64,000 nucleotides of DNA. Origin: Candidatus Doudnabacteria bacterium. GTDB lineage: Bacteria; Patescibacteriota; Doudnabacteria; UBA920; VMFF01. Every line of letters starts with the position of its first letter. Within the stretch, counting starts at the first letter, position 1. Made by a program: the position numbers and the translations under genes. The stretch covers positions 143,114-207,113 of the forward strand of contig JAQBQP010000001.1 of the NCBI GenBank assembly GCA_028286905.1. Reading direction: 5' to 3'. Positions 6,214 through 53,543 of the stretch are shown piece after piece. The notes under the pieces are model-generated. The model had not been told where the DNA came from and did no database searches. It saw only the letters and a list, made by a program, of their open reading frames with translations.

Positions 6214-7137
6214 ATGCAAATTACAGAAAAGGTTATTATCGTTTCAAATTTAAATAAGAAGTATAAAGATTTTGAGGCAGTTAAAGGAATTAGTTTCGAA
6301 GTTAACAAAGGTGAGGTTTTTGGAATTTTAGGCCCAAACGGCGCTGGAAAAACCACGACCCTAGAGATAATTGAGGGTTTGAAAAAACAAACCTCAGGAA
6401 CTATTCAGGTTTTGGGCTTAGACAATCTCAAATCCGACAAAGAAATTAAGAAAAGAATTGGAGTTCAGCTACAAAGCAGCGAATATCTTAATTATTTAAC
6501 ACTTGGTGAACAAATTAAGCTATTTGGCAGTTTATATGGGGTAAAAGCTGATCCGATTGCTACTCTAAAGAAGGTTAATCTAGAAGATAAGGTGAATAAC
6601 GAAGTAAAAGAGCTTTCTGGCGGACAGAAACAACGTTTTACCATTGCCACTGCGCTAGTGCATACCCCAGAAATCCTCTTTTTAGATGAACCAACCACCG
6701 GCTTAGACCCCCAAGCGCGCAGAGATATGTGGAATTTAATAAAGGAATTAAACCTTCAAGGTATAACCATAGTTATCACTACGCATTACATGGAAGAAGC
6801 CGAATATTTATGCAATCGGGTAGCAATAATGGATTCTGGAAAAATTTTGCAATTAGACAGCCCCCAAGGCTTAATTCAATCCCTCTCTAAGGTTTATAAA
6901 CTTAGTTTTTTTGTTAACAAGCCTTTGGATAAAGAATTTTTCAATTCTTTTGGAACACTGAAAGTCTATAATGAGTTTCCTAAAATTATTATTGAGCTCG
7001 AAAATATTGAACTGTTGCCACAAATCATTCAGAAACTTAAAGATCAAGGCATCGATTATAAGTTTTTGAACCTTAAAACTGCAACTCTTGAAGACGTTTA
7101 CTTACACTTAACCGGCCGCGAATACCAGGAACAATAA
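6214..7137 (+). CDS. ABC transporter ATP-binding protein (ABC-2 type exporter)
   Basis: Walker A GPNGAGKTT, signature LSGGQKQR, Walker B ILFLDEPTTGLD. Confidence 0.85.
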   Translation: MQITEKVIIVSNLNKKYKDFEAVKGISFEVNKGEVFGILGPNGAGKTTTLEIIEGLKKQTSGTIQVLGLDNLKSDKEIKKRIGVQLQSSEYLNYLTLGEQIKLFGSLYGVKADPIATLKKVNLEDKVNNEVKELSGGQKQRFTIATALVHTPEILFLDEPTTGLDPQARRDMWNLIKELNLQGITIVITTHYMEEAEYLCNRVAIMDSGKILQLDSPQGLIQSLSKVYKLSFFVNKPLDKEFFNSFGTLKVYNEFPKIIIELENIELLPQIIQKLKDQGIDYKFLNLKTATLEDVYLHLTGREYQEQ

Positions 7138-7140
7138 ACT

Positions 7141-7878
7141 ATGTCTTTTTACCATCTTTTTATAACCAACATCCGTTTACTCTACCGCAACTGGCGTGGG
7201 TTGTTTTTTAATTTATTCCTGCCAATAGTTTTATATGTAGCCATTAGCAAGGTTGCAGGCAACGGATCCGGCAGTAGCAATTATGCAGATTTCCTTTTAC
7301 CGGGAATTATTGCAATGACTATTATGCAAACCGGCATATTCAGTTTGGCCTATTATTTAGTAGATCTGAAGTCGCGGGGCGTACTAAAACGTTTCTTTGT
7401 GACCCCTCTCTCCACCGCTGAACTTACAGGCTCTCTAATTTTATCTAGACTAGTTTTAATGGCAATTCAGATTGCAATTTTGGTGGGAATTGGGAAAATT
7501 TATTTCGGTGCACACGTAAACGGCAGTGTTTTGGCAATTATTCTACTGATGGTTCTTGGAGGCGGTGTATTCTTGGGATTGGGCTTCCTAATATCTAGTT
7601 TAGCGAATACCTATGACGAAGCGGCTCCAATGACCACCTTACTAAATTTGATTTTCACCTTCTTAGGAAATATTTTCTTTCCAAGCAGTGTTTTACCAAA
7701 AGCTTTTCAGGCGATTGGCAGTAAGCTTCCAGTAACATACCTTGCCGAGGGCATGCGCCATAACTTTATTGAACAATGGTCCTTGAAGCAAACTTTACCG
7801 GATTTTCTTGGGTTGGCCATCTGGCTGGTAATAATCCTTGCCGCGACAACCTACACCTTTAGACTAAAGAAGGAATAG
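7141..7878 (+). CDS. ABC-2 family transporter permease
   Basis: Multi-TM hydrophobic protein immediately after the ATPase, with a 3-nt gap. Confidence 0.65.
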   Translation: MSFYHLFITNIRLLYRNWRGLFFNLFLPIVLYVAISKVAGNGSGSSNYADFLLPGIIAMTIMQTGIFSLAYYLVDLKSRGVLKRFFVTPLSTAELTGSLILSRLVLMAIQIAILVGIGKIYFGAHVNGSVLAIILLMVLGGGVFLGLGFLISSLANTYDEAAPMTTLLNLIFTFLGNIFFPSSVLPKAFQAIGSKLPVTYLAEGMRHNFIEQWSLKQTLPDFLGLAIWLVIILAATTYTFRLKKE

Positions 7879-7916
7879 GCATGAGTCGTCCGCTTCGCTT
7901 CGACATAAATCTAAAA

Positions 7917-7947
7917 AAACCTCGATCAATTGATCGAGGTTTTTTTC
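7917..7947. terminator. bidirectional intrinsic terminator (aaacctcgatcaattgatcgaggttttttt)
   Basis: Perfect hairpin flanked by an A-run and a T-run, between convergent genes. Confidence 0.6.
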
Positions 7948-8333
7948 TTTATTGTGATATTTGGCTCAGCCCCATAAGCCGGATCAAAATCTGCACCTAC
8001 CTTTTTAAGCTTCATTTTTTCTAATTGGCTGAGGTCTTCTGGCAAACGATCCTTTTCGACAGCATATAAAGGAATGTTCTTTGCAAATGAAAAAGCCAAA
8101 CCGATCGTGACACCGACTCGAATTCCAGTAAAAGACCCCGGGCCTGAAACAACAATAATCTTTTCAATCTGGTTCAGTTTAACTTTCGAAGTTTTTAAAA
8201 ACTTCTCTAAATAACCTAGGGTTTTTTCGGTTTCAGGATAAGTTATCTTAATTTTCCTTGCCCTGGTTTTTAAATTGTTAATCAAAGCAAAATGGATTTG
8301 ATTATATCCCGCGCTGTCTATAAGTAATATCAT
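7926..8333 (-). CDS. tsaB: tRNA threonylcarbamoyladenosine biosynthesis protein TsaB (YeaZ-like)
   Basis: 135 aa with a GPGSFTGIRVG motif. Confidence 0.55.
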   Translation of the reverse strand: MILLIDSAGYNQIHFALINNLKTRARKIKITYPETEKTLGYLEKFLKTSKVKLNQIEKIIVVSGPGSFTGIRVGVTIGLAFSFAKNIPLYAVEKDRLPEDLSQLEKMKLKKVGADFDPAYGAEPNITIKKKTSIN

Positions 8334-9565: not shown

Positions 9566-10566
9566 TATTTTAATTTTCTGTTTAATGCCCTTAAAAGCTT
9601 ATAAACATGATACCAGCTATGATTATAAACATAATCGTAAGTACCAATGCTCGAATGCTCTACTCCGCCAAAGCCGGCTTTAAACTTACTAAAACCGTGC
9701 CATGGATGCTTCGGGTCACTTTCGTAACCCCACAAATCATACTGAGTATATCCAAAAGCTTTGGCATCTAGAATGGCTTGCCAATGCAGCGCATATGGCG
9801 CCATCAAATTTCGTTTTATATCGGAAGAGCCGCCGAACAGATAAATCATCAGATTATTTACCAGTCCATGCTCAGTGTAAATCATTAAGTTTGCAGCTAA
9901 GATATCGCCTTCATGCCAAGCGGTGTACAGCTTAGCAGTAACTCCTAATTGTGATTGCGCGAAAAATTGCAGGATCTTTTGATAATATTGTTCTTGGAAT
10001 GCTTTTATTTTTTGACGCTTTGCTGTGTCCAGGAAAAGCTTACCTGCTTCGCCCAACTCGTTCTGTATCCGAACCTGAACATTATGCTTCTTAGCGACCT
10101 TAATGTTATAGCGAGTTTTTGGATGCATTCCTTTTAGAATATCTTCTTCGGATTTACTTATATCTAAAATTAATGTTCGGTGCGGATTTAGATCAGCACT
10201 TTTAACAAATTCACTGCTCTTTAAATAAGCTAGCTTTTGCTGAAATTCAAAACGAATAAATAAGAGTTCTGGGTATTTTTTCTTTAGCTCTTTGGCGAAG
10301 AAAATAAAATGTTCTTCAAACTTGTGCTCATCGGAAAGCACTGGACCATACGGCAAAAATAAATAAGCGTGCTTTCCTTGCTTACTCAAAATCGCTTGGG
10401 CAACGAAAGAAAAAGTTTTAAATTCTTCAATTGCAAAACGTCGAACATCTTTACCAACACTTTTTTGAAAATCTCCCCAAGCCCAACTTTGCAAAAAGCT
10501 GCCCTTGGAATTTACCAGGCGCTGATATTGCTCACGGTCTTCTGCTGTTAGTTCTAGTAATTGCAT
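9565..10566 (-). CDS. FemAB-family peptidoglycan bridge peptidyltransferase
   Basis: 333 aa with a FemAB/FemX-like N-terminus. Adjacent to the Mur ligase. Confidence 0.5.
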   Translation of the reverse strand: MQLLELTAEDREQYQRLVNSKGSFLQSWAWGDFQKSVGKDVRRFAIEEFKTFSFVAQAILSKQGKHAYLFLPYGPVLSDEHKFEEHFIFFAKELKKKYPELLFIRFEFQQKLAYLKSSEFVKSADLNPHRTLILDISKSEEDILKGMHPKTRYNIKVAKKHNVQVRIQNELGEAGKLFLDTAKRQKIKAFQEQYYQKILQFFAQSQLGVTAKLYTAWHEGDILAANLMIYTEHGLVNNLMIYLFGGSSDIKRNLMAPYALHWQAILDAKAFGYTQYDLWGYESDPKHPWHGFSKFKAGFGGVEHSSIGTYDYVYNHSWYHVYKLLRALNRKLK

Positions 10567-11126
10567 TATTTGCTAAGATGCTTTAAGGCTTGTCTGAGTT
10601 TTTCTTCCGAAGTTAAGCTGTGATCAATTTTTGATAATACTTCTTTGATCTCGCGGGTTGAATAGCCTAAGCCTTCTAAGGCCGTAAGGATATCGTCGGA
10701 GCCGCCGCCAACAAAGCTGCCGCCAGAAATTGAACCAAGTTTTTCTTTTAGTTCCATAATAATTCGTTCCGCGGTTTTTTTGCCAACTCCACCAACCTTA
10801 GTAAATACCGCGACGTCTTGAGAAATAATCGCATTCCGAACTAAATCAATATCCCCCGCTGAAAGCACAGACATCGCCATTTTTGGTCCAACCCCGGAAA
10901 CGGTAATTAAAAGCTCAAAGAAATTCAATTCTGAAATCGTTTGGAACCCATACAAATTCAAAGCATCCTCGCGTACTTGTAAGTAAGTATGTACTTCTAT
11001 CTCAGAGTTAAGAGGTAACTCCAAGATCTTTGGAGTAGCCATAATTCGATAACCAATACCATTGTTTTCTAACAATAGTTGATTTTCGGTTTTTCCAATA
11101 ATTTTTCCTTTGATGTATCCGATCAT
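10566..11126 (-). CDS. ruvA: Holliday junction DNA helicase RuvA
   Basis: MIGYIKGK...GIGYRI...VSGVGPK motifs. Confidence 0.85.
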   Translation of the reverse strand: MIGYIKGKIIGKTENQLLLENNGIGYRIMATPKILELPLNSEIEVHTYLQVREDALNLYGFQTISELNFFELLITVSGVGPKMAMSVLSAGDIDLVRNAIISQDVAVFTKVGGVGKKTAERIIMELKEKLGSISGGSFVGGGSDDILTALEGLGYSTREIKEVLSKIDHSLTSEEKLRQALKHLSK

Positions 11127-13826: not shown

Positions 13827-13956
13827 ACATAACCACTATCGTCAGCTCCTTGACTTTTAGACGTATTTATGATACTATGGTGGATACCTAATTTTAAGGT
13901 ATTCCACGCGTCGCAAGGCGCTTAGCACGTTCACAATGTCTGGGAGGACTACACAG

Positions 13957-15132
13957 ATGTTTAAGATTCGACCCAACACTCGCGTTCGCGCGGCTATTGC
14001 CATCCTGGCATTAGCCCCAGTCTTGACAGCATGCAACAGCGAGGGTGTCACCGGTGTCAGCGCCAACCCGCCGACCTACCCCGGACCCGCCGGACCGACG
14101 ATCCCTAAGAAGACCTGCTCCGACGATCCGACCACAGGACAGCCCTGCATCAACGGCTATCCCTGGAGCAGCGTCGGCGCGATCGACCTGCCAAACGCGG
14201 TAACCGCGATGCTGGTCACCCCCGATGACAAGACCGCCTACGTCGGCGAGGGCAACCTCGTTCAACAGTATGCGGTTTTGACGGACAGCCTTCCGGCCGT
14301 TCGCCTCCAGGCTGTCGGCTCTCCGATCGGGATCGCCAGCAATGGGCGGCAATTCACGCTCTGCAACGGCCAGATCACCGCTCCGTACGGCACCAGCGGC
14401 ATCAGCATGATCGACCCTGCAACACAGACGTCGATCACTCTGCCGACGCTGACCAACAACAAGATCAGCAGCCTATCGTGCTCTCCAGGGAATTCAATCC
14501 TGGTGATAACCGATACGAACGGCGCAGTGCTCCGGTACAACTACGCAACAAAGACGACGCTTCCGATTATTCGCGACACAACGCGAATGGGAGTGCCTGC
14601 CTTCGCCGCGCAGAACCCATCCGGCACCGCTTTCATCGCTGCGAACTTCTCGGAGCGATACCAGAGCGGACAAATCGGGGTAAACTCGCCGATGCTGATC
14701 AGCCTCACGAACAGCAACACCAACGGAGTGTACTTCCCATCAAGCGGCGCGGCACTGCCAATCAACGGCGTGACGTACGGCAGCTGGGCCGCGACCATCT
14801 CCGAAGACAAAAACCTTCGTGTGTATGATGCGGTGCTTCCCAACGGCCAGTTTCCGGAACACTGCATGATGCCGCTTCCGGGGATACCTACCACCGTGAC
14901 AGCCGCCGACAACAGCAACCTCCTCGCAGTCGGCGTCCCGTTTAGCGCCACCGGCAATAAGGTGATCATCTATCGCGCCAACCCTGGCCGCCAGGCAGGC
15001 TGCGACAAGATCTTCGAGGCCGACAATTCCGTCGCGAACTCGCCGATCAAGGCGCTGCACTTCAGCGCTTCTGGTGCACACCTCTTTGTCGCCAGCGGCA
15101 ATCGAATCATCGTACTGGTCGCGAACAAGTAA
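13957..15132 (+). CDS. putative secreted lipoprotein (GC-rich islet), probable beta-propeller/repeat protein
   Basis: GGGAGGA SD 8 nt upstream of ATG 13957. MFKIRPNTRVRAAIAILALAPVLTAC is a signal peptide with an LTAC lipobox. About 62% GC against a roughly 38% background. The track ORF starts at 13936. Confidence 0.5.
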   Translation: MFKIRPNTRVRAAIAILALAPVLTACNSEGVTGVSANPPTYPGPAGPTIPKKTCSDDPTTGQPCINGYPWSSVGAIDLPNAVTAMLVTPDDKTAYVGEGNLVQQYAVLTDSLPAVRLQAVGSPIGIASNGRQFTLCNGQITAPYGTSGISMIDPATQTSITLPTLTNNKISSLSCSPGNSILVITDTNGAVLRYNYATKTTLPIIRDTTRMGVPAFAAQNPSGTAFIAANFSERYQSGQIGVNSPMLISLTNSNTNGVYFPSSGAALPINGVTYGSWAATISEDKNLRVYDAVLPNGQFPEHCMMPLPGIPTTVTAADNSNLLAVGVPFSATGNKVIIYRANPGRQAGCDKIFEADNSVANSPIKALHFSASGAHLFVASGNRIIVLVANK

Positions 15133-28345: not shown

Positions 28346-29689
28346 CTACATGTACAGCTTGTTAACAATTAAATCTAACTCTTGCTTCAATGATTCTTTT
28401 TCAAGCAGCAGTTTAGAGATTTTATCTACCGCATGCATTACGGTGGTGTGGTCTCTTCCGCCAAAATGTTCTCCGATGCTTGGAAAAGAATTTTCTAATT
28501 CCTCGCGCATCAAGTACATTGCAATCTGTCTAGGTTTAACAAATTCTTTACGGCGAGACTGTCTTAGCAAATCATCTAATGTAATATTATAAAAATCGGC
28601 AACGACTTCCATTAATTTTTTAACAGAGATAACTCTTTTCTTCGCAGAAGCGACCCCGACTAATACGGCTTTAACTTGCTCTATAGTTGGACGGGTGTTG
28701 TTTAGTTGGCAATAGACCATTAAACGATTTAAAGCCCCTTCTAGCTCTCTGATATTGCTCTGAATGGTCTCCGCGATATAAGTTAGGACATTAGTATCAA
28801 CGTCATAATTCTTTTCAAGTGCCTTCGCTTTAAGAATTGCTAGTCTTGTTTCAAAATCCGGTGCTTGAATATCAGCAATCATACCCCATTCAAAACGAGA
28901 AACTAATCTTTCTTCAATTGCTGGGATATCTTTGGGTAGGCGATCAGAAGAAAGGATAACTTGTTTATTATTCTGATGCAGAGTATTAAAGGTATGGAAA
29001 AATTCTTCTTGGGTTTGTTCCTTGCCTGCTAAGAACTGAATGTCATCAATCATCAAAACATCGATTCCGCGATACAATTCTTTGAATTGAGCAACACGAC
29101 CTAAGCTTATTGACTGCACAAATTCATTAGTAAATTTTTCACTTGTGACATACATTACTTTTGCGGACGGATTAAATTTTAAAACCTCGTGTCCGATTGC
29201 CTGCATTAAATGAGTTTTGCCCAATCCTACTCCCCCATATAAAAACAAAGGGTTGTAAACCATGCCCGGTTTTTTTGAAACTGCATTACATGCAGCGTAG
29301 GCAAGTTCATTCCCTTTCCCAACGATAAAAGTCTCAAAAGTGTACTTTGGATTTAACCCAGTATTGGTAGTATTTTGTACTACACGGGTTCCTTGGGCAA
29401 CTTTATTTTGCGCTTCGTTTTGCTGAGGCTTTGGGGTTCCAGATGAGGATACGATTTGGTATTTAACTTCTTTAACTTCTGGCGCAATCATTCTTAATGC
29501 TTTAAGAATGTCAGTATTATATTTGTTTTGAAGCCATTCTTTAGTAAATGAGTTCGGTACGCTAACTACAATGTTGTCATCGTTTTTCTCTAAAATAGCT
29601 GTATTTTTGAACCAAGTTGTGAAGTTAGCTTTGCTCAAAGTTACTTCCAAATTACCCAAAATCGCTTGCCAGAGTTGTTGGTTAGTCAT
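28346..29689 (-). CDS. dnaA: chromosomal replication initiator protein DnaA
   Basis: AAA+ GGVGLGKTHL, C-terminal DNA-binding helix-turn-helix. SD GGGGA 9 nt before ATG. Confidence 0.95.
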   Translation of the reverse strand: MTNQQLWQAILGNLEVTLSKANFTTWFKNTAILEKNDDNIVVSVPNSFTKEWLQNKYNTDILKALRMIAPEVKEVKYQIVSSSGTPKPQQNEAQNKVAQGTRVVQNTTNTGLNPKYTFETFIVGKGNELAYAACNAVSKKPGMVYNPLFLYGGVGLGKTHLMQAIGHEVLKFNPSAKVMYVTSEKFTNEFVQSISLGRVAQFKELYRGIDVLMIDDIQFLAGKEQTQEEFFHTFNTLHQNNKQVILSSDRLPKDIPAIEERLVSRFEWGMIADIQAPDFETRLAILKAKALEKNYDVDTNVLTYIAETIQSNIRELEGALNRLMVYCQLNNTRPTIEQVKAVLVGVASAKKRVISVKKLMEVVADFYNITLDDLLRQSRRKEFVKPRQIAMYLMREELENSFPSIGEHFGGRDHTTVMHAVDKISKLLLEKESLKQELDLIVNKLYM

Positions 29690-44848: not shown

Positions 44849-45424
44849 TTATTCAGAGTCCGTTCGGGTTAAAGGTTCGAGATCAATACCACAGAGCGTA
44901 CAATAGCCTTCGTACTGAAGAAAAATTGCGCGCGGGTGACCAGCTCGGCACTCGATCATTCGATGGTGTGCCAGGCTCCTGCCGTTCAGCGCCAAGAAGA
45001 CTTTGTGTGCGAAATGCGCGTTCTTTTCACCGCAGCATTCGCAGAATCGGCAATCGGCTTGGACCTGCTCACCGCACGAAGGCTCTTCGCACAAGGTGGT
45101 TTGTCCATACTGCCCGAGAGCGTAGAGGTGTCCCCTCAATGTATCGTGATTAGGCGCGTTCGCGGTGTCGCCAGCCGCTTGCTCAAGCTCTTGGATTTTT
45201 TTCTCAACGAAGGCATTTGATTTTTTCAGCCGGCTAGCAATAACCGCTGATTCAATCCCTTCAGAATGCATTCGAAGAATAAGAAAATCTTCGGCTGGAA
45301 TTGTTCGCGCCAGTTCCCAGCACTTTCGACTGAGTTCCTGGAAGAGCATCTCAATCTCATCATCGAGAAGAGAGTCCTGGTCGTCCTCATTGTTCTCCTC
45401 GGGTTCGGGGTCTATCCAAGTCAT
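44849..45424 (-). CDS. sigma-70 region-4-like HTH + zinc-ribbon protein, paralogue 1 (GC-rich islet)
   Basis: Start MTWIDPEPEE overlaps the upstream stop as ATGA. Sigma4-like FLILRMHSEGIESAVIASRL. C-terminal CxxCG...CxxCG, GHP, GYCxLCG. The stop is embedded in a terminator hairpin. Confidence 0.5.
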   Translation of the reverse strand: MTWIDPEPEENNEDDQDSLLDDEIEMLFQELSRKCWELARTIPAEDFLILRMHSEGIESAVIASRLKKSNAFVEKKIQELEQAAGDTANAPNHDTLRGHLYALGQYGQTTLCEEPSCGEQVQADCRFCECCGEKNAHFAHKVFLALNGRSLAHHRMIECRAGHPRAIFLQYEGYCTLCGIDLEPLTRTDSE

Positions 45425-46077
45425 AATTCCTCGTCGTTTTCGAATTGCCCAAGGATCGGCGCGAGATCTGTGCCGCACAGATTGCAATACCCGACGCACC
45501 GATACTTAATCGCTATTGGGTGGCCAACATGGCATTCACCAGCGCACTCTTCTTCATATGAGTTGCCTCGTACTTGAAGAAAGATCCGAGCGTCGAACTC
45601 GCTATTTGGCTTACCGCACTGGACGCAGTACTTAAGGTCTTCGTGCTGGAAAAAGCCGCAATTTGAACAGCGAGTTTGATAGCCGTATTCAGCTAAGGCA
45701 TGCATTGCTTCATCAAGGTTTGGCACCCAACGCAGCAGGTGTACAGTGGCAATGCGTTCTGCCGAGGCGCGAACCCCGGCAATTTCCTCAGGCGTAATAC
45801 TCAGCCTGTTTGCAATTTGATCTTCCGACAGAAATGTCAGTAGCCGAAGGATCAAAAACGCGTCTTCTCTAAGCAAGGCTGCCGCTGCAGCCGCTCGCTC
45901 CCGTACAATCTGCTCGTTCTTTTCTGCGCGCTTGAATTTCTCGAATGTTTGGGGTTGTCCAGGTTCTGCCCCTGTCGACTCGTCTGACTTGAAGATTTTG
46001 AACGAATCTGAGTGTATTCCCTCGGGGTTCCAGGCGTTGTCGTCTGAATTTTCCCAAGGATCTCTTTCCTTTTTCAT
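45421..46077 (-). CDS. sigma-70 region-4-like HTH + zinc-ribbon protein, paralogue 2 (GC-rich islet)
   Basis: GGAGG SD 4 nt before MKKERDPW. Acidic N-terminus. Sigma4-like LREDAFLILRLLTFLSEDQIANRLSITPEEIAGVRASAERI. C-terminal CSNCG...CVQCG, ECAGECHVGHP, GYCNLCG. Confidence 0.5.
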   Translation of the reverse strand: MKKERDPWENSDDNAWNPEGIHSDSFKIFKSDESTGAEPGQPQTFEKFKRAEKNEQIVRERAAAAAALLREDAFLILRLLTFLSEDQIANRLSITPEEIAGVRASAERIATVHLLRWVPNLDEAMHALAEYGYQTRCSNCGFFQHEDLKYCVQCGKPNSEFDARIFLQVRGNSYEEECAGECHVGHPIAIKYRCVGYCNLCGTDLAPILGQFENDEEL

Positions 46078-46125
46078 ACATCCTCCGGGAAGTTGGTTGA
46101 ATCTAGTATACATCCATTAAAACCT

Positions 46126-47528: not shown

Positions 47529-47831
47529 TTATATTTCTAACCCCTGATTGATTTTTAAAAGTTTTTCAAAATTGTCATTCGGAGATGTTTTATTATTTTT
47601 TTCGTAACCACAAATAGTGCATTGGTGTTTGATTACATATTCACCATTTTTAAGAAATACTTGAACTGGTTTCATTAAGCCACCACAGCTACTAGCTCTA
47701 TCTCCGGGGTTAATATCTACGTGCTTGCTGTATAAGCAATTAGGGCAATGGTTGGTATAACCATCTCCTTTTACTAGATTGTTGCAATGCTCGCAAGTGA
47801 AGTTTTCAATTTTTCTGGTGAACTTTTTCAT
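47529..47831 (-). CDS. RNHCP-domain zinc-ribbon protein
   Basis: FTCEHCN...YTNHCPNC...CTICG, matching the RNHCP motif family. Confidence 0.45.
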   Translation of the reverse strand: MKKFTRKIENFTCEHCNNLVKGDGYTNHCPNCLYSKHVDINPGDRASSCGGLMKPVQVFLKNGEYVIKHQCTICGYEKNNKTSPNDNFEKLLKINQGLEI

Positions 47832-47861: not shown

Positions 47862-47892
47862 ATAAAAACAAGACCCGCTGACTTTCGCCAGC
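47862..47892. terminator. hairpin terminator (cccgctgactttcgccagcggg with U-rich tails on both strands)
   Basis: Seen in sequence, between the GC-rich gene and the RNHCP gene. Confidence 0.45.
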
Positions 47893-47951
47893 GGGTGCTT
47901 ATTTGTTTTTCCCTATCTTCCTCCGTCAAGATAAGGGAGACAATTTGTTCG

Positions 47952-48980
47952 TTACAGGATTTCGAGTTTTCGAGTGTTCATGTCCACTACCGCCGTGAGA
48001 ACTTCGAGATGTTTGAGCAGATCAGGCGTGTGAGCTTCGATTACGTCCCGTGCGTATGCGCTTAGGAACTTCGTCTTTTCAATTGCCAATTGGCGATCTG
48101 GACCTACCGGCTTGCGGTAAGCTGCGGAGGTCATCAAGACCAAACCATCTGCGCCGTTAACCCTGCCGGAGACGATGTTGTCCTGAAGCAGAATTGCCGC
48201 AGTCTTGATTGGTCCAGTTATGTCCGGTGAGTATGGGCCGACAAGAAAAGCGGCGTTGATCTCGTGTAGCCAATCGAACCCACTGCCGATACCAATCATC
48301 CACTCCTTGTGTTCTACTTCGGAGTTCGGGCGGTTCGATGCACGTATTTCCTTGATGTGCTTGAGGTTTCCTGCCAACAGCGGCAAAAAATCCGTTTGCA
48401 CTTGTTCAGGCATCGATGGGTACAGGCGCTTGATCAGGTCCTTTAATTCTGCGGATGACGCCGTTTCGTTCAGTTCGGACAGGTCGACACGTTCGCCATT
48501 TTCTCCGTGGAGGATTAGTGCATCCAGGTCGGTTTCGATTCCGCAGACAATTGAGGTTACAGCCTGACCTTTGAAGACAGTACTAATCTGTTGCTTCAGG
48601 GTGGCCATCTCCAAAAGTGCGGCGTCGGTGTTATAGTCGAAGCCTCTGCAACCGCGGTGTGCGTCTCCTCTGGAGAAATGGTAGGTTACCAAGACTAAAC
48701 ACGGTCTTGCTCGGCTGATTGCGTAGGATACCCATTCGTTGAGAGTGGTTTGGAAGTGAGCCCAGCCCAAGTTAAACCGACCACCGAGATTTCGGAACGG
48801 TCGGATTATGCCCAACGGAGTTTGTGTGATTATCGGCAAGTGAAGCCTGCCGTCCATGCATTTCAGCACGGCGATTTCCGTTGGATGCTGGCTGCGGTAC
48901 AAACTGCGATCCAGTGCTTGGTTGAGGAAGCTGGTTGAGCTACTTGCATTCAAATCAACGAGGTGTTTTATCCTATTCAA
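47952..48980 (-). CDS. hypothetical protein with beta-carbonic-anhydrase-like zinc-site motifs plus a roughly 140-aa C-terminal extension (GC-rich islet)
   Basis: TTG start with GGAGA SD at 6 nt. CMDGR (CxDxR), FRNLGG about 20 aa later (compare beta-CA VRNAGN), and HRGC (HxxC) about 67 aa after the first Cys. Confidence 0.4.
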   Translation of the reverse strand: MNRIKHLVDLNASSSTSFLNQALDRSLYRSQHPTEIAVLKCMDGRLHLPIITQTPLGIIRPFRNLGGRFNLGWAHFQTTLNEWVSYAISRARPCLVLVTYHFSRGDAHRGCRGFDYNTDAALLEMATLKQQISTVFKGQAVTSIVCGIETDLDALILHGENGERVDLSELNETASSAELKDLIKRLYPSMPEQVQTDFLPLLAGNLKHIKEIRASNRPNSEVEHKEWMIGIGSGFDWLHEINAAFLVGPYSPDITGPIKTAAILLQDNIVSGRVNGADGLVLMTSAAYRKPVGPDRQLAIEKTKFLSAYARDVIEAHTPDLLKHLEVLTAVVDMNTRKLEIL

Positions 48981-49117
48981 AGCTGTTCTCCTTTAGTGAT
49001 CTTATTGTTTCCCTTCTACCCGCGTGGGTAGGAAAATATATTAGCAAAAATATTTAGAATTGAAAAGTTTCAAATAAAATAGCGATCACAAAATGTGCCG
49101 CTATCTAAAAATTAACT

Positions 49118-50277: not shown

Positions 50278-50868
50278 TCATGCAATTTGCGGTAAGCCAG
50301 CAATGTGAAGGCGACGGAGCTGGGCAATATGTCTCACGATCTTGCCCATTAAGGTGTGGTGGATCCATTCCGGGGTATCCTTCGCGTTTACCAGCAAATA
50401 CCGGCCTTTTGGGTAGCGGGTTTTGCTAGCTACCAGGGCTTGCTCCTCTTTGGCGTAGTGGGCCATCACTTCACGGCCTCCTTTGCCATCGATCAGAAAG
50501 ACCACGGCCATTCCTTGCTCGTTAAGGAATTGAGCGTCCTTTAGGAGCTGGCCACAGCTACTGTCACAGAGGTCCACTATTGCAATAGATTCTGCACCCA
50601 AGCTCCCCTCGGCTACCAGCTCGGCTATGCCGGGGTGAACAGGCAGTGAAGGTTCCTTGCAAACCCTTTGCACAAAGATCGTGGTGAATCTCCCTATGTG
50701 CGGGTCGGTGGGAAGCTTAGCGATATCATCGCTTAGCCTCTTAAGGACTTTCATGTGGGCTCGCGAGGATGGCGATTCGGAGATGATTAGGATGACGCGT
50801 TCGCGGGCGCGCCTTTCTGGGTTCTCTCCACTGCGGGGTGTGATCCGCCGGTCGGAAAGCATCGACAT
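50278..50868 (-). CDS. hypothetical alpha/beta protein (GC-rich islet)
   Basis: GGAGGAG SD 6-7 nt before MSMLSDRR. Alternating hydrophobic strands (RVILIISES, IAIVDLCDSSCG, MAVVFLIDGKGG) suggest a Rossmann/flavodoxin-like fold. Family not recognised. Confidence 0.35.
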   Translation of the reverse strand: MSMLSDRRITPRSGENPERRARERVILIISESPSSRAHMKVLKRLSDDIAKLPTDPHIGRFTTIFVQRVCKEPSLPVHPGIAELVAEGSLGAESIAIVDLCDSSCGQLLKDAQFLNEQGMAVVFLIDGKGGREVMAHYAKEEQALVASKTRYPKGRYLLVNAKDTPEWIHHTLMGKIVRHIAQLRRLHIAGLPQIA

Positions 50869-51041
50869 TTGTAACTCCTCCTGAGAGTTCCATGTATACA
50901 TCGCACGGCAACCCCTAGGTTGCTACTTGCTGCGTGCTGCTTACTACTTACATTAAATACCTTAACAAAAGAAAAGACCTTACGGAAGATCGTCAAGGCC
51001 TTTTTTCGTGGACATGTTATGGATAACCTGTTGGTTAGCTG

Positions 51042-52821: not shown

Positions 52822-53543
52822 TCAGGCGTGTGCCAGGATGACCTGCACCTTCTTGATCGCGGCGATGGACAGCGGGCAGACGATCTCGTCGGCCCCGATC
52901 ATCTCGTCGATCTCCTCCTGGGTGAAGAAGTCGACCTTGTAGATCTTCTCCTTCTCGTCAGGGTTCTGCTTGCCGAGCCGGTCTTCGTCGACCCGTGCCA
53001 GGAAGATCGGGGTGTAGCCGCAGATGAAAGTGGTGTTGCCTGCAACGATCTGCCCGATCTTCTCGCAGCTGAGCAGCGGGCCCCCGATCTCCTCACCGCC
53101 TTCACGCATGGCGGTCTCCTTCGTGGTTTCGCCTGCTTCGGCATGCCGCGGGGAACTTCCCAGAGTCCGGTGCCGAACTTGGAGAAGTCGGTTGGTGGGT
53201 AGGAGTAGTCATCCGGGTTCGCCACTGCGGGACGGTCAACCTTGACTAGACCGATACGCTCCTTCGAGTCGACGACCATGGTAATGGCGCCGATGTTCTC
53301 GAAATGCAGAGGCTGGTCCCACAGCGGGGTGCCATCGTCCTTGCAGATGGCGACGTGCACGAGCTGCCCGATCCCCTTCGTGTGCTCGAAGACGATGTCA
53401 GTGTTGGGGTTGGAGTCTTCGGTGCTGTACAAGTACCAGCCACGAAGGGGGCGCTTCTCGCCGTTTCTCTTGGCCTGTTCGTACAAGACGGGAGTGCCGT
53501 AAAAGAACTGGCTTGCTACCTGTGAGAATGGGACGACCTTCAT
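52822..53543 (-). pseudogene. Nudix hydrolase, frame-disrupted within the Nudix box (GC-rich islet)
   Basis: Frame A (from 53543) ends ...FGTGLWEVPRG, then runs into an Arg/Ser-rich stretch that does not look like real coding sequence. The frame shifted by one nucleotide continues ...HAEAGETTKETAMREGGEEIGGPLL..., a perfect Gx5Ex7REUxEExGU Nudix signature. A single-nucleotide frame change near 53140-53155 joins the two frames. Confidence 0.5.

Follow-up and report, generated by a model that had tools for sequence, protein, structure and literature searches.

Can a protein be recognized as a carbonic anhydrase from a few short strings of residues when it is about 140 aa longer than a typical enzyme of the beta class? 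The question is raised by a gene at 47952..48980 on the minus strand of a 64,000-nt stretch of DNA from a Candidatus Doudnabacteria bacterium (the whole stretch is called the window below, all coordinates are positions in it, and (-) denotes its minus strand). The 342-aa product matches a deposited entry, "hypothetical protein JWO40_172" from a Candidatus Doudnabacteria metagenome-assembled genome (MAG), at 100% identity. The initial annotation, made from the sequence alone, read in it a set of beta-carbonic anhydrase (beta-CA) motifs: CMDGR at residue 41, PFRNLGG at 61 (20 residues on) and HRGC at 108 (67 residues on), and these spacings are accurate. We determined the family membership, fold, residue conservation and gene boundaries, which are reported here as observations. 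The protein is a complete representative of the compact CsoSCA family found outside carboxysomes (CsoSCA being the carbonic anhydrase of the carboxysome shell), an enzyme type that has already been catalogued. A deposited "hypothetical protein" is now confidently classified as a CsoSCA2-type carbonic anhydrase, and the assignment of its zinc ligands is corrected.

Family membership and fold

In profile searches, the protein scores 25.1 bits against Pfam CsoSCA_cat (PF20686), above the cutoff of 21.5, whereas Pro_CA (PF00484), the profile by which the assignment to canonical beta-CAs was originally to be checked, yields 13.5 bits (E = 0.089) and stays below its cutoff of 25.7. Among 68 family members, CsoSCA_cat is matched by 54 and Pro_CA by 14 at E <= 0.1. 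The NCBIfam equivalog of carboxysomal CsoSCA (TIGR02701) is missed by a wide margin, with 27.3 bits against a cutoff of 241. Sequence searches of the PDB with phmmer and hmmsearch returned CsoSCA chains exclusively at E <= 1e-4, the best matches being 2FGY for the single sequence (4e-5) and 8THM for the family profile (1.9e-7).

The family is large. A database search with the protein retrieved over 1,300 homologues, which measure about 350 aa, an exhaustive profile search found 535 family clusters at 50% identity among 1.84 billion representatives, and relatives are held by 475 of 185,579 species-level genomes. Proteins of Nitrosomonas oligotropha (Nm45/Nm75), N. marina and other Nitrosomonadaceae are 56-58% identical over residues 4-342 (~339 aa), with E-values of ~1e-125 to 1e-127 for the Nitrosomonas relatives, which carry the annotation carboxysome shell carbonic anhydrase domain protein.

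Non-carboxysomal homologues of CsoSCA were named CsoSCA2 by Sutter, Kerfeld & Scott (2022, PMC9164163), whose survey drew on isolate genomes only. The same authors describe a compact form with shortened loops, a ~40-aa N-terminus for which two short helices are predicted, and an active and a defunct domain with every catalytic residue kept, of which Nitrosomonas oligotropha is an example (PMC9164163). They expect the compact proteins to be monomeric or to have lost dimer contacts. The "non-cso" orphan cluster of Pulsford et al. (2024, PMC11086599) is the same family, described independently. With compact CsoSCA2 the protein has in common the ~350-aa length, a two-helix N-terminus of ~35-40 aa, the pair of active and defunct domains, all active-site residues and a location outside the cso locus; the compact proteins of N. 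oligotropha Nm45/Nm75 are 56-57% identical to it over ~339 aa. It differs from the described members by its host, a Patescibacteria (Candidatus Doudnabacteria) MAG, and by its surroundings: other CsoSCA2 genes have DabA/antiporter, permease or "NAD/hydrogenase"-type neighbours, whereas the gene in the window is solitary, GC-rich and placed beside tRNA genes.

Structure comparison leads to the same family. An AlphaFold2 (AF2) model built with 68 homologues as input has a pLDDT of 93.9 and a pTM of 0.90, and Foldseek aligns it with CsoSCA over the full length (360-390 columns, TMq 0.72-0.76, E ~1e-16 to 1e-17), namely with 8THM at E = 5.5e-17, with 9G4T at TMq 0.76 and with 2FGY at TMq 0.72. Identity to solved CsoSCA in these structure-based alignments is ~19-22%. 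The tandem beta-CA 1DDZ ranks next (E = 2.3e-6, TMq 0.48) and is followed by single-domain beta-CAs, which cover roughly a third of the query with TMq ~0.2-0.36. The beta-CA core fold is present, with Foldseek probabilities of 0.97-1.0 and TMt ~0.5 against CcaA and the enzymes of H. influenzae, V. cholerae and M. tuberculosis.

Active site and domain architecture

The defining residues of CsoSCA from Halothiobacillus neapolitanus (Hn) are C173, D175, R177, H242, C253, H397 and E399, with C173, H242 and C253 as zinc ligands. HMMER alignments to 2FGY and 8THM place them at C41, D43, R45, H101, C111, H224 and E226; the 28-residue tag offset of 2FGY was verified on four separate motifs, and the aligned pairs (query/CsoSCA) are CMDGR/CADGR, YHF/YHF, GC of HRGC/GC of HSGC and EHKE/GHAE. 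Conservation was followed in two sets, 68 close homologues and 115 distant representatives that are 28-49% identical to the query. All seven residues are invariant in the close set, while in the distant one C41, D43, R45, H101 and C111 reach 100%, H224 97% and E226 94%.

The initial annotation was thus right in seeing a real, conserved gene with a beta-class zinc site and Asp-Arg dyad, as C41, D43, R45 and C111 are invariant in both sets. Of the zinc ligands it had named, C41 and C111 stand and H108 does not. The latter residue, equivalent to Hn H250, occurs in at least 90% of the close homologues and in 50% of the distant ones, against 100% for H101, and is therefore ruled out as a ligand. 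By equivalence to Hn H242, the zinc histidine is H101 of the YHF motif, ten residues before C111.

The polypeptide can be divided into three parts. Its short N-terminal segment (residues 1-34; 48879..48980 (-)) forms two helices in the AF2 model, at 3-20 and 22-31, the first strand beginning at residue 35; this segment replaces the ~144-aa N-terminal domain of carboxysomal enzymes. The catalytic domain follows (residues ~35-224; 48309..48878 (-)), with the ligands C41/H101/C111, the dyad D43-R45 and, at its end, H224; its border was set by homology to HnCsoSCA and is approximate. The rest (residues ~225-342; 47955..48308 (-)), beginning with E226 and a GxGFDW motif, is judged from its fold to be a zinc-less second beta-CA-like domain. 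Its H-x-E...G-x-G-F-D motif aligns to Hn 397-408, and residues 225-342 contain no conserved Cys/His zinc triad across the 115 distant representatives. The ~140 aa by which the protein exceeds typical beta-CAs are real, but they are not an appended tail, as had been supposed: they superpose on CsoSCA, and according to the model consist of a CsoSCA-type helical insert and the zinc-less second domain, with the conserved H224-x-E226 motif at their start.

Two features of the carboxysomal enzyme are missing. Firstly, only 34 residues precede the catalytic domain, leaving no region for a hook motif and Rubisco-binding peptide; in carboxysomal CsoSCA the hook motif and Rubisco/shell binding belong to an N-terminal domain of ~144 aa (PMC9164163, PMC11086599). 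That domain also serves in hexamerisation. Secondly, carboxysomal CsoSCA is activated by oxidation of vicinal cysteines (Hn C283/C284), a pair found in ~80% of CsoSCA orthologues (bioRxiv 10.64898/2026.04.02.716132). The corresponding position reads VF-KGQ in our protein, where the pair aligns to "F-K", and the vicinal pair occurs in 0 of the 68 close and in 1 of the 115 distant family members. Because both the N-terminal domain and the redox switch are absent, we infer that the enzyme would act free in the reducing cytoplasm.

The position of the protein among known systems can now be summarized. With carboxysomal CsoSCA (2FGY/9G4T of Halothiobacillus neapolitanus, 8THM of Cyanobium PCC 7001) it shares the two-domain pseudo-dimer fold, the Cys/His/Cys zinc ligands, in which His precedes the second Cys by 10-11 residues, the Asp-Arg dyad and the His-x-Glu at the domain junction. 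The large N-terminal domain, hook motif, Rubisco-binding peptide and Cys switch are confined to the carboxysomal enzyme, whose gene is part of a cso operon that also comprises cbbLS, csoS2 and the genes of the shell; none of these adjoins our gene or was met among the window proteins scanned. With canonical beta-CAs (E. coli Can, H. influenzae CA, CcaA) it shares the alpha/beta core, Cys-x-Asp-x-Arg and the Cys/His/Cys zinc chemistry. These enzymes have H-x-x-C, are ~200-220 aa long and pair as genuine homodimers that hold two sites, whereas here the ligand His precedes the Cys by 10 residues and a degenerate second domain replaces the partner subunit. The best structural match outside CsoSCA, 1DDZ of Porphyridium purpureum, is likewise one chain with two beta-CA-like domains forming an internal pseudo-dimer. 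In 1DDZ the zinc site is kept in both repeats, while our protein keeps the first only.

The gene and its surroundings in the window

The open reading frame (ORF) ends with a stop codon at 47952-47954 and starts with TTG, the first start codon past the preceding in-frame stop. A Shine-Dalgarno (SD) sequence GGAGA can be read at 48987..48991 (-), 6 nt 5' of the TTG, so that ORF, length, start and SD are all as initially described. The same applies to a small palindromic hairpin of the 5' leader, CTACCC-GCGT-GGGTAG (6-bp stem, 4-nt loop), at 49016..49031 (-). It occurs in both the minimum free energy and the centroid fold; the fold z-score of -2.0 belongs to the entire 143-nt spacer 5' of the gene and not to this hairpin by itself. 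An Rfam scan of the window found tRNAs only, with no riboswitch or leader 5' of the gene.

Genes for tRNA-Cys and tRNA-Leu lie upstream on the same strand. Right after tRNA-Leu(taa), folding of 48975-49117 reveals a terminator-like hairpin with an 11-12 bp stem followed by the U-run UUUUAUUU, at 49070..49105 (-). This strong hairpin closes the tRNA-Cys/tRNA-Leu unit just 5' of the leader and implies that the carbonic anhydrase gene has its own promoter further downstream. On the other side, a terminator scan detected an intrinsic-terminator-like hairpin of 10 pairs (7 G-C) followed by CTTGTTTTTA at 47863..47896 (-). It would end the transcript ahead of the RNHCP gene, which indeed is immediately downstream on the same strand (47529..47831, 120-bp gap, PF12647 E = 4.9e-29). 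Since terminator-like hairpins are located on both sides, the gene is probably monocistronic.

RNHCP can be set aside as a functional partner, because of the terminator-like hairpin between the two genes and because their adjacency is confined to close relatives. It adjoins the carbonic anhydrase gene in 3 of the 90 loci fetched (the window and the contigs L002 and L090); in the remaining 87 it is missing, and RNHCP is therefore no partner of the family.

The gene was correctly described as GC-rich: its GC content is 0.513 (median of the window ORFs 0.389) and its GC at third codon positions (GC3) 0.586 (median 0.359), and it ranks fourth in GC content among 54 window ORFs. It is one of five sharp outliers (GC 0.50-0.60, GC3 0.51-0.75; remaining window ORFs do not exceed 0.45 GC), found at 13936-15132 (+), 45421-46113 (-), 47952-48980 (-), 50278-50901 (-) and 52899-53543 (-). 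Three of the other four are situated within 5 kb of it, and Pfam assigned none of the four to a family above cutoff. The five outliers may have been acquired horizontally. Judging by its base composition and flanking hairpins, the carbonic anhydrase gene appears to be a monocistronic and compositionally foreign unit of the Doudnabacteria genome.

The order FdtA-hypothetical-hypothetical-carbonic anhydrase-RNHCP-S1(-)...MBL-GyrA recurs on L002 and L090, whose carbonic anhydrases are 68% and 75% identical to the window protein. In all three syntenic genomes the gene exceeds its flanks by 8-11 GC points. Synteny and high GC in the three suggest that the gene was acquired before they diverged. The two contigs come from one assembly of tens of thousands of contigs, GCA_034680565.1, which carries these two different syntenic copies separately and is therefore probably a mixture of two or more related Doudnabacteria and not a single genome.

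In bootstrapped neighbour-joining (NJ) trees, the window protein with those of L002 and L090 forms a clade in 100/100 replicates, and Nitrosomonadaceae are monophyletic, also in 100/100. The first NJ tree had the window clade as sister to the Nitrosomonadaceae clade, an arrangement which received bootstrap values of 24-42/100 and is unsupported. Identity of the window protein to betaproteobacterial proteins (~57-58%) falls inside the range of 47-75% among members of the candidate phyla radiation (CPR), which makes transfer between phyla likely. Recent transfer from ammonia oxidisers was rejected as the cause of high GC, as the protein groups with those of L002 and L090, whose genes are themselves 8-9 GC points over their flanks.

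The neighbours of the gene comprise tRNAs, RNHCP, S1, GyrA, FdtA, an epimerase and hypothetical genes. A Pfam scan covered 35 window proteins, including those encoded directly beside the gene; most larger ORFs were represented, though not every ORF. The scanned proteins are of housekeeping character (DnaA, UvrB, Mur ligase, IF-2, TyrRS, GyrA, S1, sugar-nucleotide enzymes), and no Rubisco, carboxysome-shell, carboxylase or transporter family is among these 35. The dnaA gene is located at 28346-29689 (-) (Bac_DnaA, E = 9.8e-72), and the window may span the region of the chromosomal replication origin.

Relatives, proposed role and rival explanations

Genes of the relatives are associated with inorganic-carbon and proton machinery: DabA with antiporter-like subunits, SulP/STAS, P-II and the F1Fo operon. 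Neighbour clustering took in 85 loci of family members. In the Nitrosomonadaceae type (L003/L004, 1-7053; L008-L056, with the carbonic anhydrase gene at ~10001-11014), antiporter-like genes (Proton_antipo_M) immediately precede CsoSCA2 in the same orientation in 45 loci, of which 40 contain DabA as well, the usual order being antiporter-DabA-antiporter-antiporter-antiporter-carbonic anhydrase. On the 3' side of the gene there is often one for a SulP/STAS transporter (15 loci) or for P-II. DabA (PF10070) shares the gene cluster with CsoSCA2 in Nitrosomonadaceae and is a separate family of ~800-1100 aa (1090 aa in the single case with called length) which gave no sequence match to our protein in any search. 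Related to beta-CAs, this zinc protein reportedly operates together with antiporter-like subunits that translocate protons (Desmarais et al. 2019). Encoding of a free carbonic anhydrase together with a DAB-type pump is physiologically puzzling. Pulsford et al. gave the "non-cso" neighbours as "NAD or [Fe-Ni] hydrogenases or permeases" (PMC11086599); these are probably the antiporter-like and SulP genes.

A different setting is met in loci labelled as Patescibacteria: of 30 distinct ones, ~12 have the gene next to the F1Fo ATP-synthase operon or within it, in four configurations. It follows atpC in L053, L055/L006, L060/L005, L063, L066, L077 and L078, with gaps mostly of 6-39 bp; it is inserted between atpA and atpG in L088/L089 (7001-8059; gaps of 5 and 15 bp; the protein occurs on 11 contigs); it follows atpH in L071 and L074; and it lies just upstream of atpB in L085 and L084, the latter also with a SulP gene. 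By our own estimate, the chance of a random gene lying so close to an 8-gene operon is roughly 1-2%. The several distinct insertion points argue against simple inherited synteny. In the literature searched there was no report of an operon linkage between carbonic anhydrase and ATP synthase, and likewise nothing relevant on DabA, Nitrosomonas and carbonic anhydrase.

We suggest, with a probability of about 0.8, that the protein is a cytosolic Zn-dependent carbonic anhydrase of the beta class, from the compact, non-carboxysomal branch of CsoSCA. The metal binding, catalysis and cellular role that we propose for it are deduced from sequence and its comparison with characterized enzymes. The single polypeptide would fold as an intramolecular pseudo-dimer, the catalytic beta-CA domain holding one Zn2+ through C41, H101 and C111, and the D43-R45 dyad would orient the zinc-bound water or hydroxide. 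The zinc-less second domain would sit where the partner subunit lies in ordinary beta-CAs, and H224 and E226 at the domain junction would complete the active site for the reaction CO2 + H2O <-> HCO3- + H+. In the Doudnabacteria host, the enzyme would likely serve in housekeeping equilibration of CO2, bicarbonate and protons, that is, in bicarbonate supply or in pH/proton buffering.

Several points weigh against this proposal. The CsoSCA2 family is known from sequence and no member has ever been assayed (PMC9164163). Replacement of the vicinal cysteines by alanine abolishes the activity of carboxysomal CsoSCA (bioRxiv 10.64898/2026.04.02.716132); our protein is naturally without them, so activity is not to be simply assumed. 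Convergence of C41, H101 and C111 on one metal is deduced only from alignment to crystallographic ligands. The C-terminal half by itself, whose separate search had been advised at the outset, matched nothing in Pfam at E <= 10, CsoSCA_C included, so that this half is identified by its fold and by the H-x-E/GxGFD motif. Finally, no bicarbonate- or CO2-using partner gene is among the 35 scanned window proteins, and a tblastn probe of the 64-kb window detected no atp or Dab genes; with no CO2-related partner there, the role in this host is drawn from relatives only.

The atp-operon loci invite a more ambitious scenario, in which the CsoSCA2 of Patescibacteria is an accessory of the F1Fo ATPase, the lineage was exchanged with ammonia oxidisers, and the window copy is a relocated monocistronic module. 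The CsoSCA-type enzyme would then supply or buffer protons for an ATPase that acts as a proton pump in CPR cells that ferment and do not respire, much like the arrangement of carbonic anhydrase II, H+-ATPase and SLC26-SLC4 in acid-secreting animal cells, and in ammonia oxidisers CsoSCA2 would have been recruited to a DabA/antiporter inorganic-carbon pump. We regard this as tentative and rather improbable. Less likely still, the protein might possess the CsoSCA fold and zinc site without being a free-running carbonic anhydrase: it might be regulated, inactive by default, a bicarbonate/CO2 sensor, or an obligate subunit active only when docked to a proton machine of the membrane, be it ATP synthase or a DAB-like complex. 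The inactivity of CsoSCA with the Cys pair changed to alanine would fit this, the CsoSCA2 family being without the pair, as would the position of relatives inside atp operons with gaps of 5-15 bp (L088/L089), or mostly 6-39 bp after atpC; and a free cytosolic carbonic anhydrase beside a DabA-type pump is expected, as has been stated in the literature, to short-circuit bicarbonate accumulation. Three genuine CsoSCA clades, however, likewise have no cysteine pair, and strong purifying selection has preserved the seven catalytic residues over a range of 28-49% identity. In the window, moreover, the gene stands alone: the tblastn probe gave no atp or Dab genes within 64 kb, so it must work without a partner encoded in cis.

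The remaining explanations change the substrate, the family or the origin. Thiobacillus COSase and Acidianus CS2 hydrolase are beta-CA-fold enzymes with the same Cys-His-Cys zinc site. Our protein could thus be a hydrolase of another small linear molecule, for example carbonyl sulfide or carbon disulfide; with an identical zinc site the substrate is not readable from sequence, and CsoSCA2 has never been assayed. We consider it very unlikely, given that all its closest relatives, by structure as by sequence, are bona fide CO2/HCO3- enzymes, that the family neighbours (DabA, SulP/STAS, P-II) are related to dissolved inorganic carbon, and that no sulfur-metabolism genes adjoin in the loci examined. 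The idea of a canonical Pro_CA enzyme with an H108/C111 HxxC site and a novel C-terminal extension, possibly working with RNHCP, draws on the CxDxR and HxxC strings, which are literally there, on the weak Pro_CA match (E = 0.089) and on the adjacency of RNHCP in three related genomes. It is hardly tenable when Pro_CA is below and CsoSCA_cat above cutoff, H108 is conserved to 50% against 100% for H101, the extension superposes on CsoSCA, a terminator-like hairpin separates the two genes and RNHCP is absent at the other 87 family loci. Least credible of all is the idea that a carboxysome locus lost its shell and Rubisco genes and that a truncated carboxysomal CsoSCA survived as its remnant. Homology to CsoSCA would be accounted for, and there is a precedent, as one CsoSCA2 variant, that of Nitrobacter and Nitrosomonas nitrosa, arose by duplication of carboxysomal CsoSCA (PMC9164163). 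But identity to solved CsoSCA is 19-22%, TIGR02701 gives 27 bits versus 241, the ~350-aa family is large and coherent (535 clusters at 50% identity, 475 species genomes), no Rubisco or shell family is among the 35 window proteins scanned, and gene order is stable across three genomes.

The CsoSCA2 group to which the protein belongs is widespread and may represent the ancestral free-living form that gave rise to the carboxysomal enzyme. A minimal 342-aa member without targeting domain or redox switch offers a convenient subject for asking what job the zinc-less domain does, whether activity is constitutive in a reducing cytoplasm, and whether the enzyme is monomeric. The atp-operon setting in Patescibacteria and the DabA/antiporter setting in Nitrosomonadaceae suggest a general coupling to proton-translocating machines, which, if true, bears on the energy metabolism of CPR. 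We see the atp-operon embedding in CPR relatives as the lead most worth following.

Further observations concern individual loci. A divergent second CsoSCA2 paralogue accompanies the first in three of them, just downstream in L076 (8835-9968, PF20686 E = 1.3e-8) and L081, and in L057 upstream in the opposite orientation. This paralogue retains CMDGR, YHY, H-x-E and the second zinc cysteine, with SLGC standing in place of HRGC. Recurrent neighbours in CPR-like loci contain CxDx(R)...HxxC-like strings, namely L083 55-726 (cluster c28), L080 10142-10729 (c44) and L059 11110-12777 (c41). None of the three has a Pfam family, and hhalign of c41 and c44 with the CsoSCA2 profile revealed no relationship, the probabilities being below 1%.

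Some taxon labels require caution. Archaeal (DPANN) distribution of the family was not accepted, as it is based on one locus, L087 (GCA_030695805.1, gene at 7001-8068), labelled "Nanoarchaeota archaeon"; its neighbours, DUF5671/DUF5674, are CPR-typical and make the label doubtful. L054 (CAYNQD010000001.1, 594 kb), labelled "uncultured Candidatus Saccharibacteria", nests inside the Nitrosomonas clade, and L076, L080-L082 and L086, labelled "uncultured Gammaproteobacteria", have a CPR-like arrangement of atp and carbonic anhydrase genes; the labels of L054 and of these five loci, all from third-party assemblies, appear unreliable.

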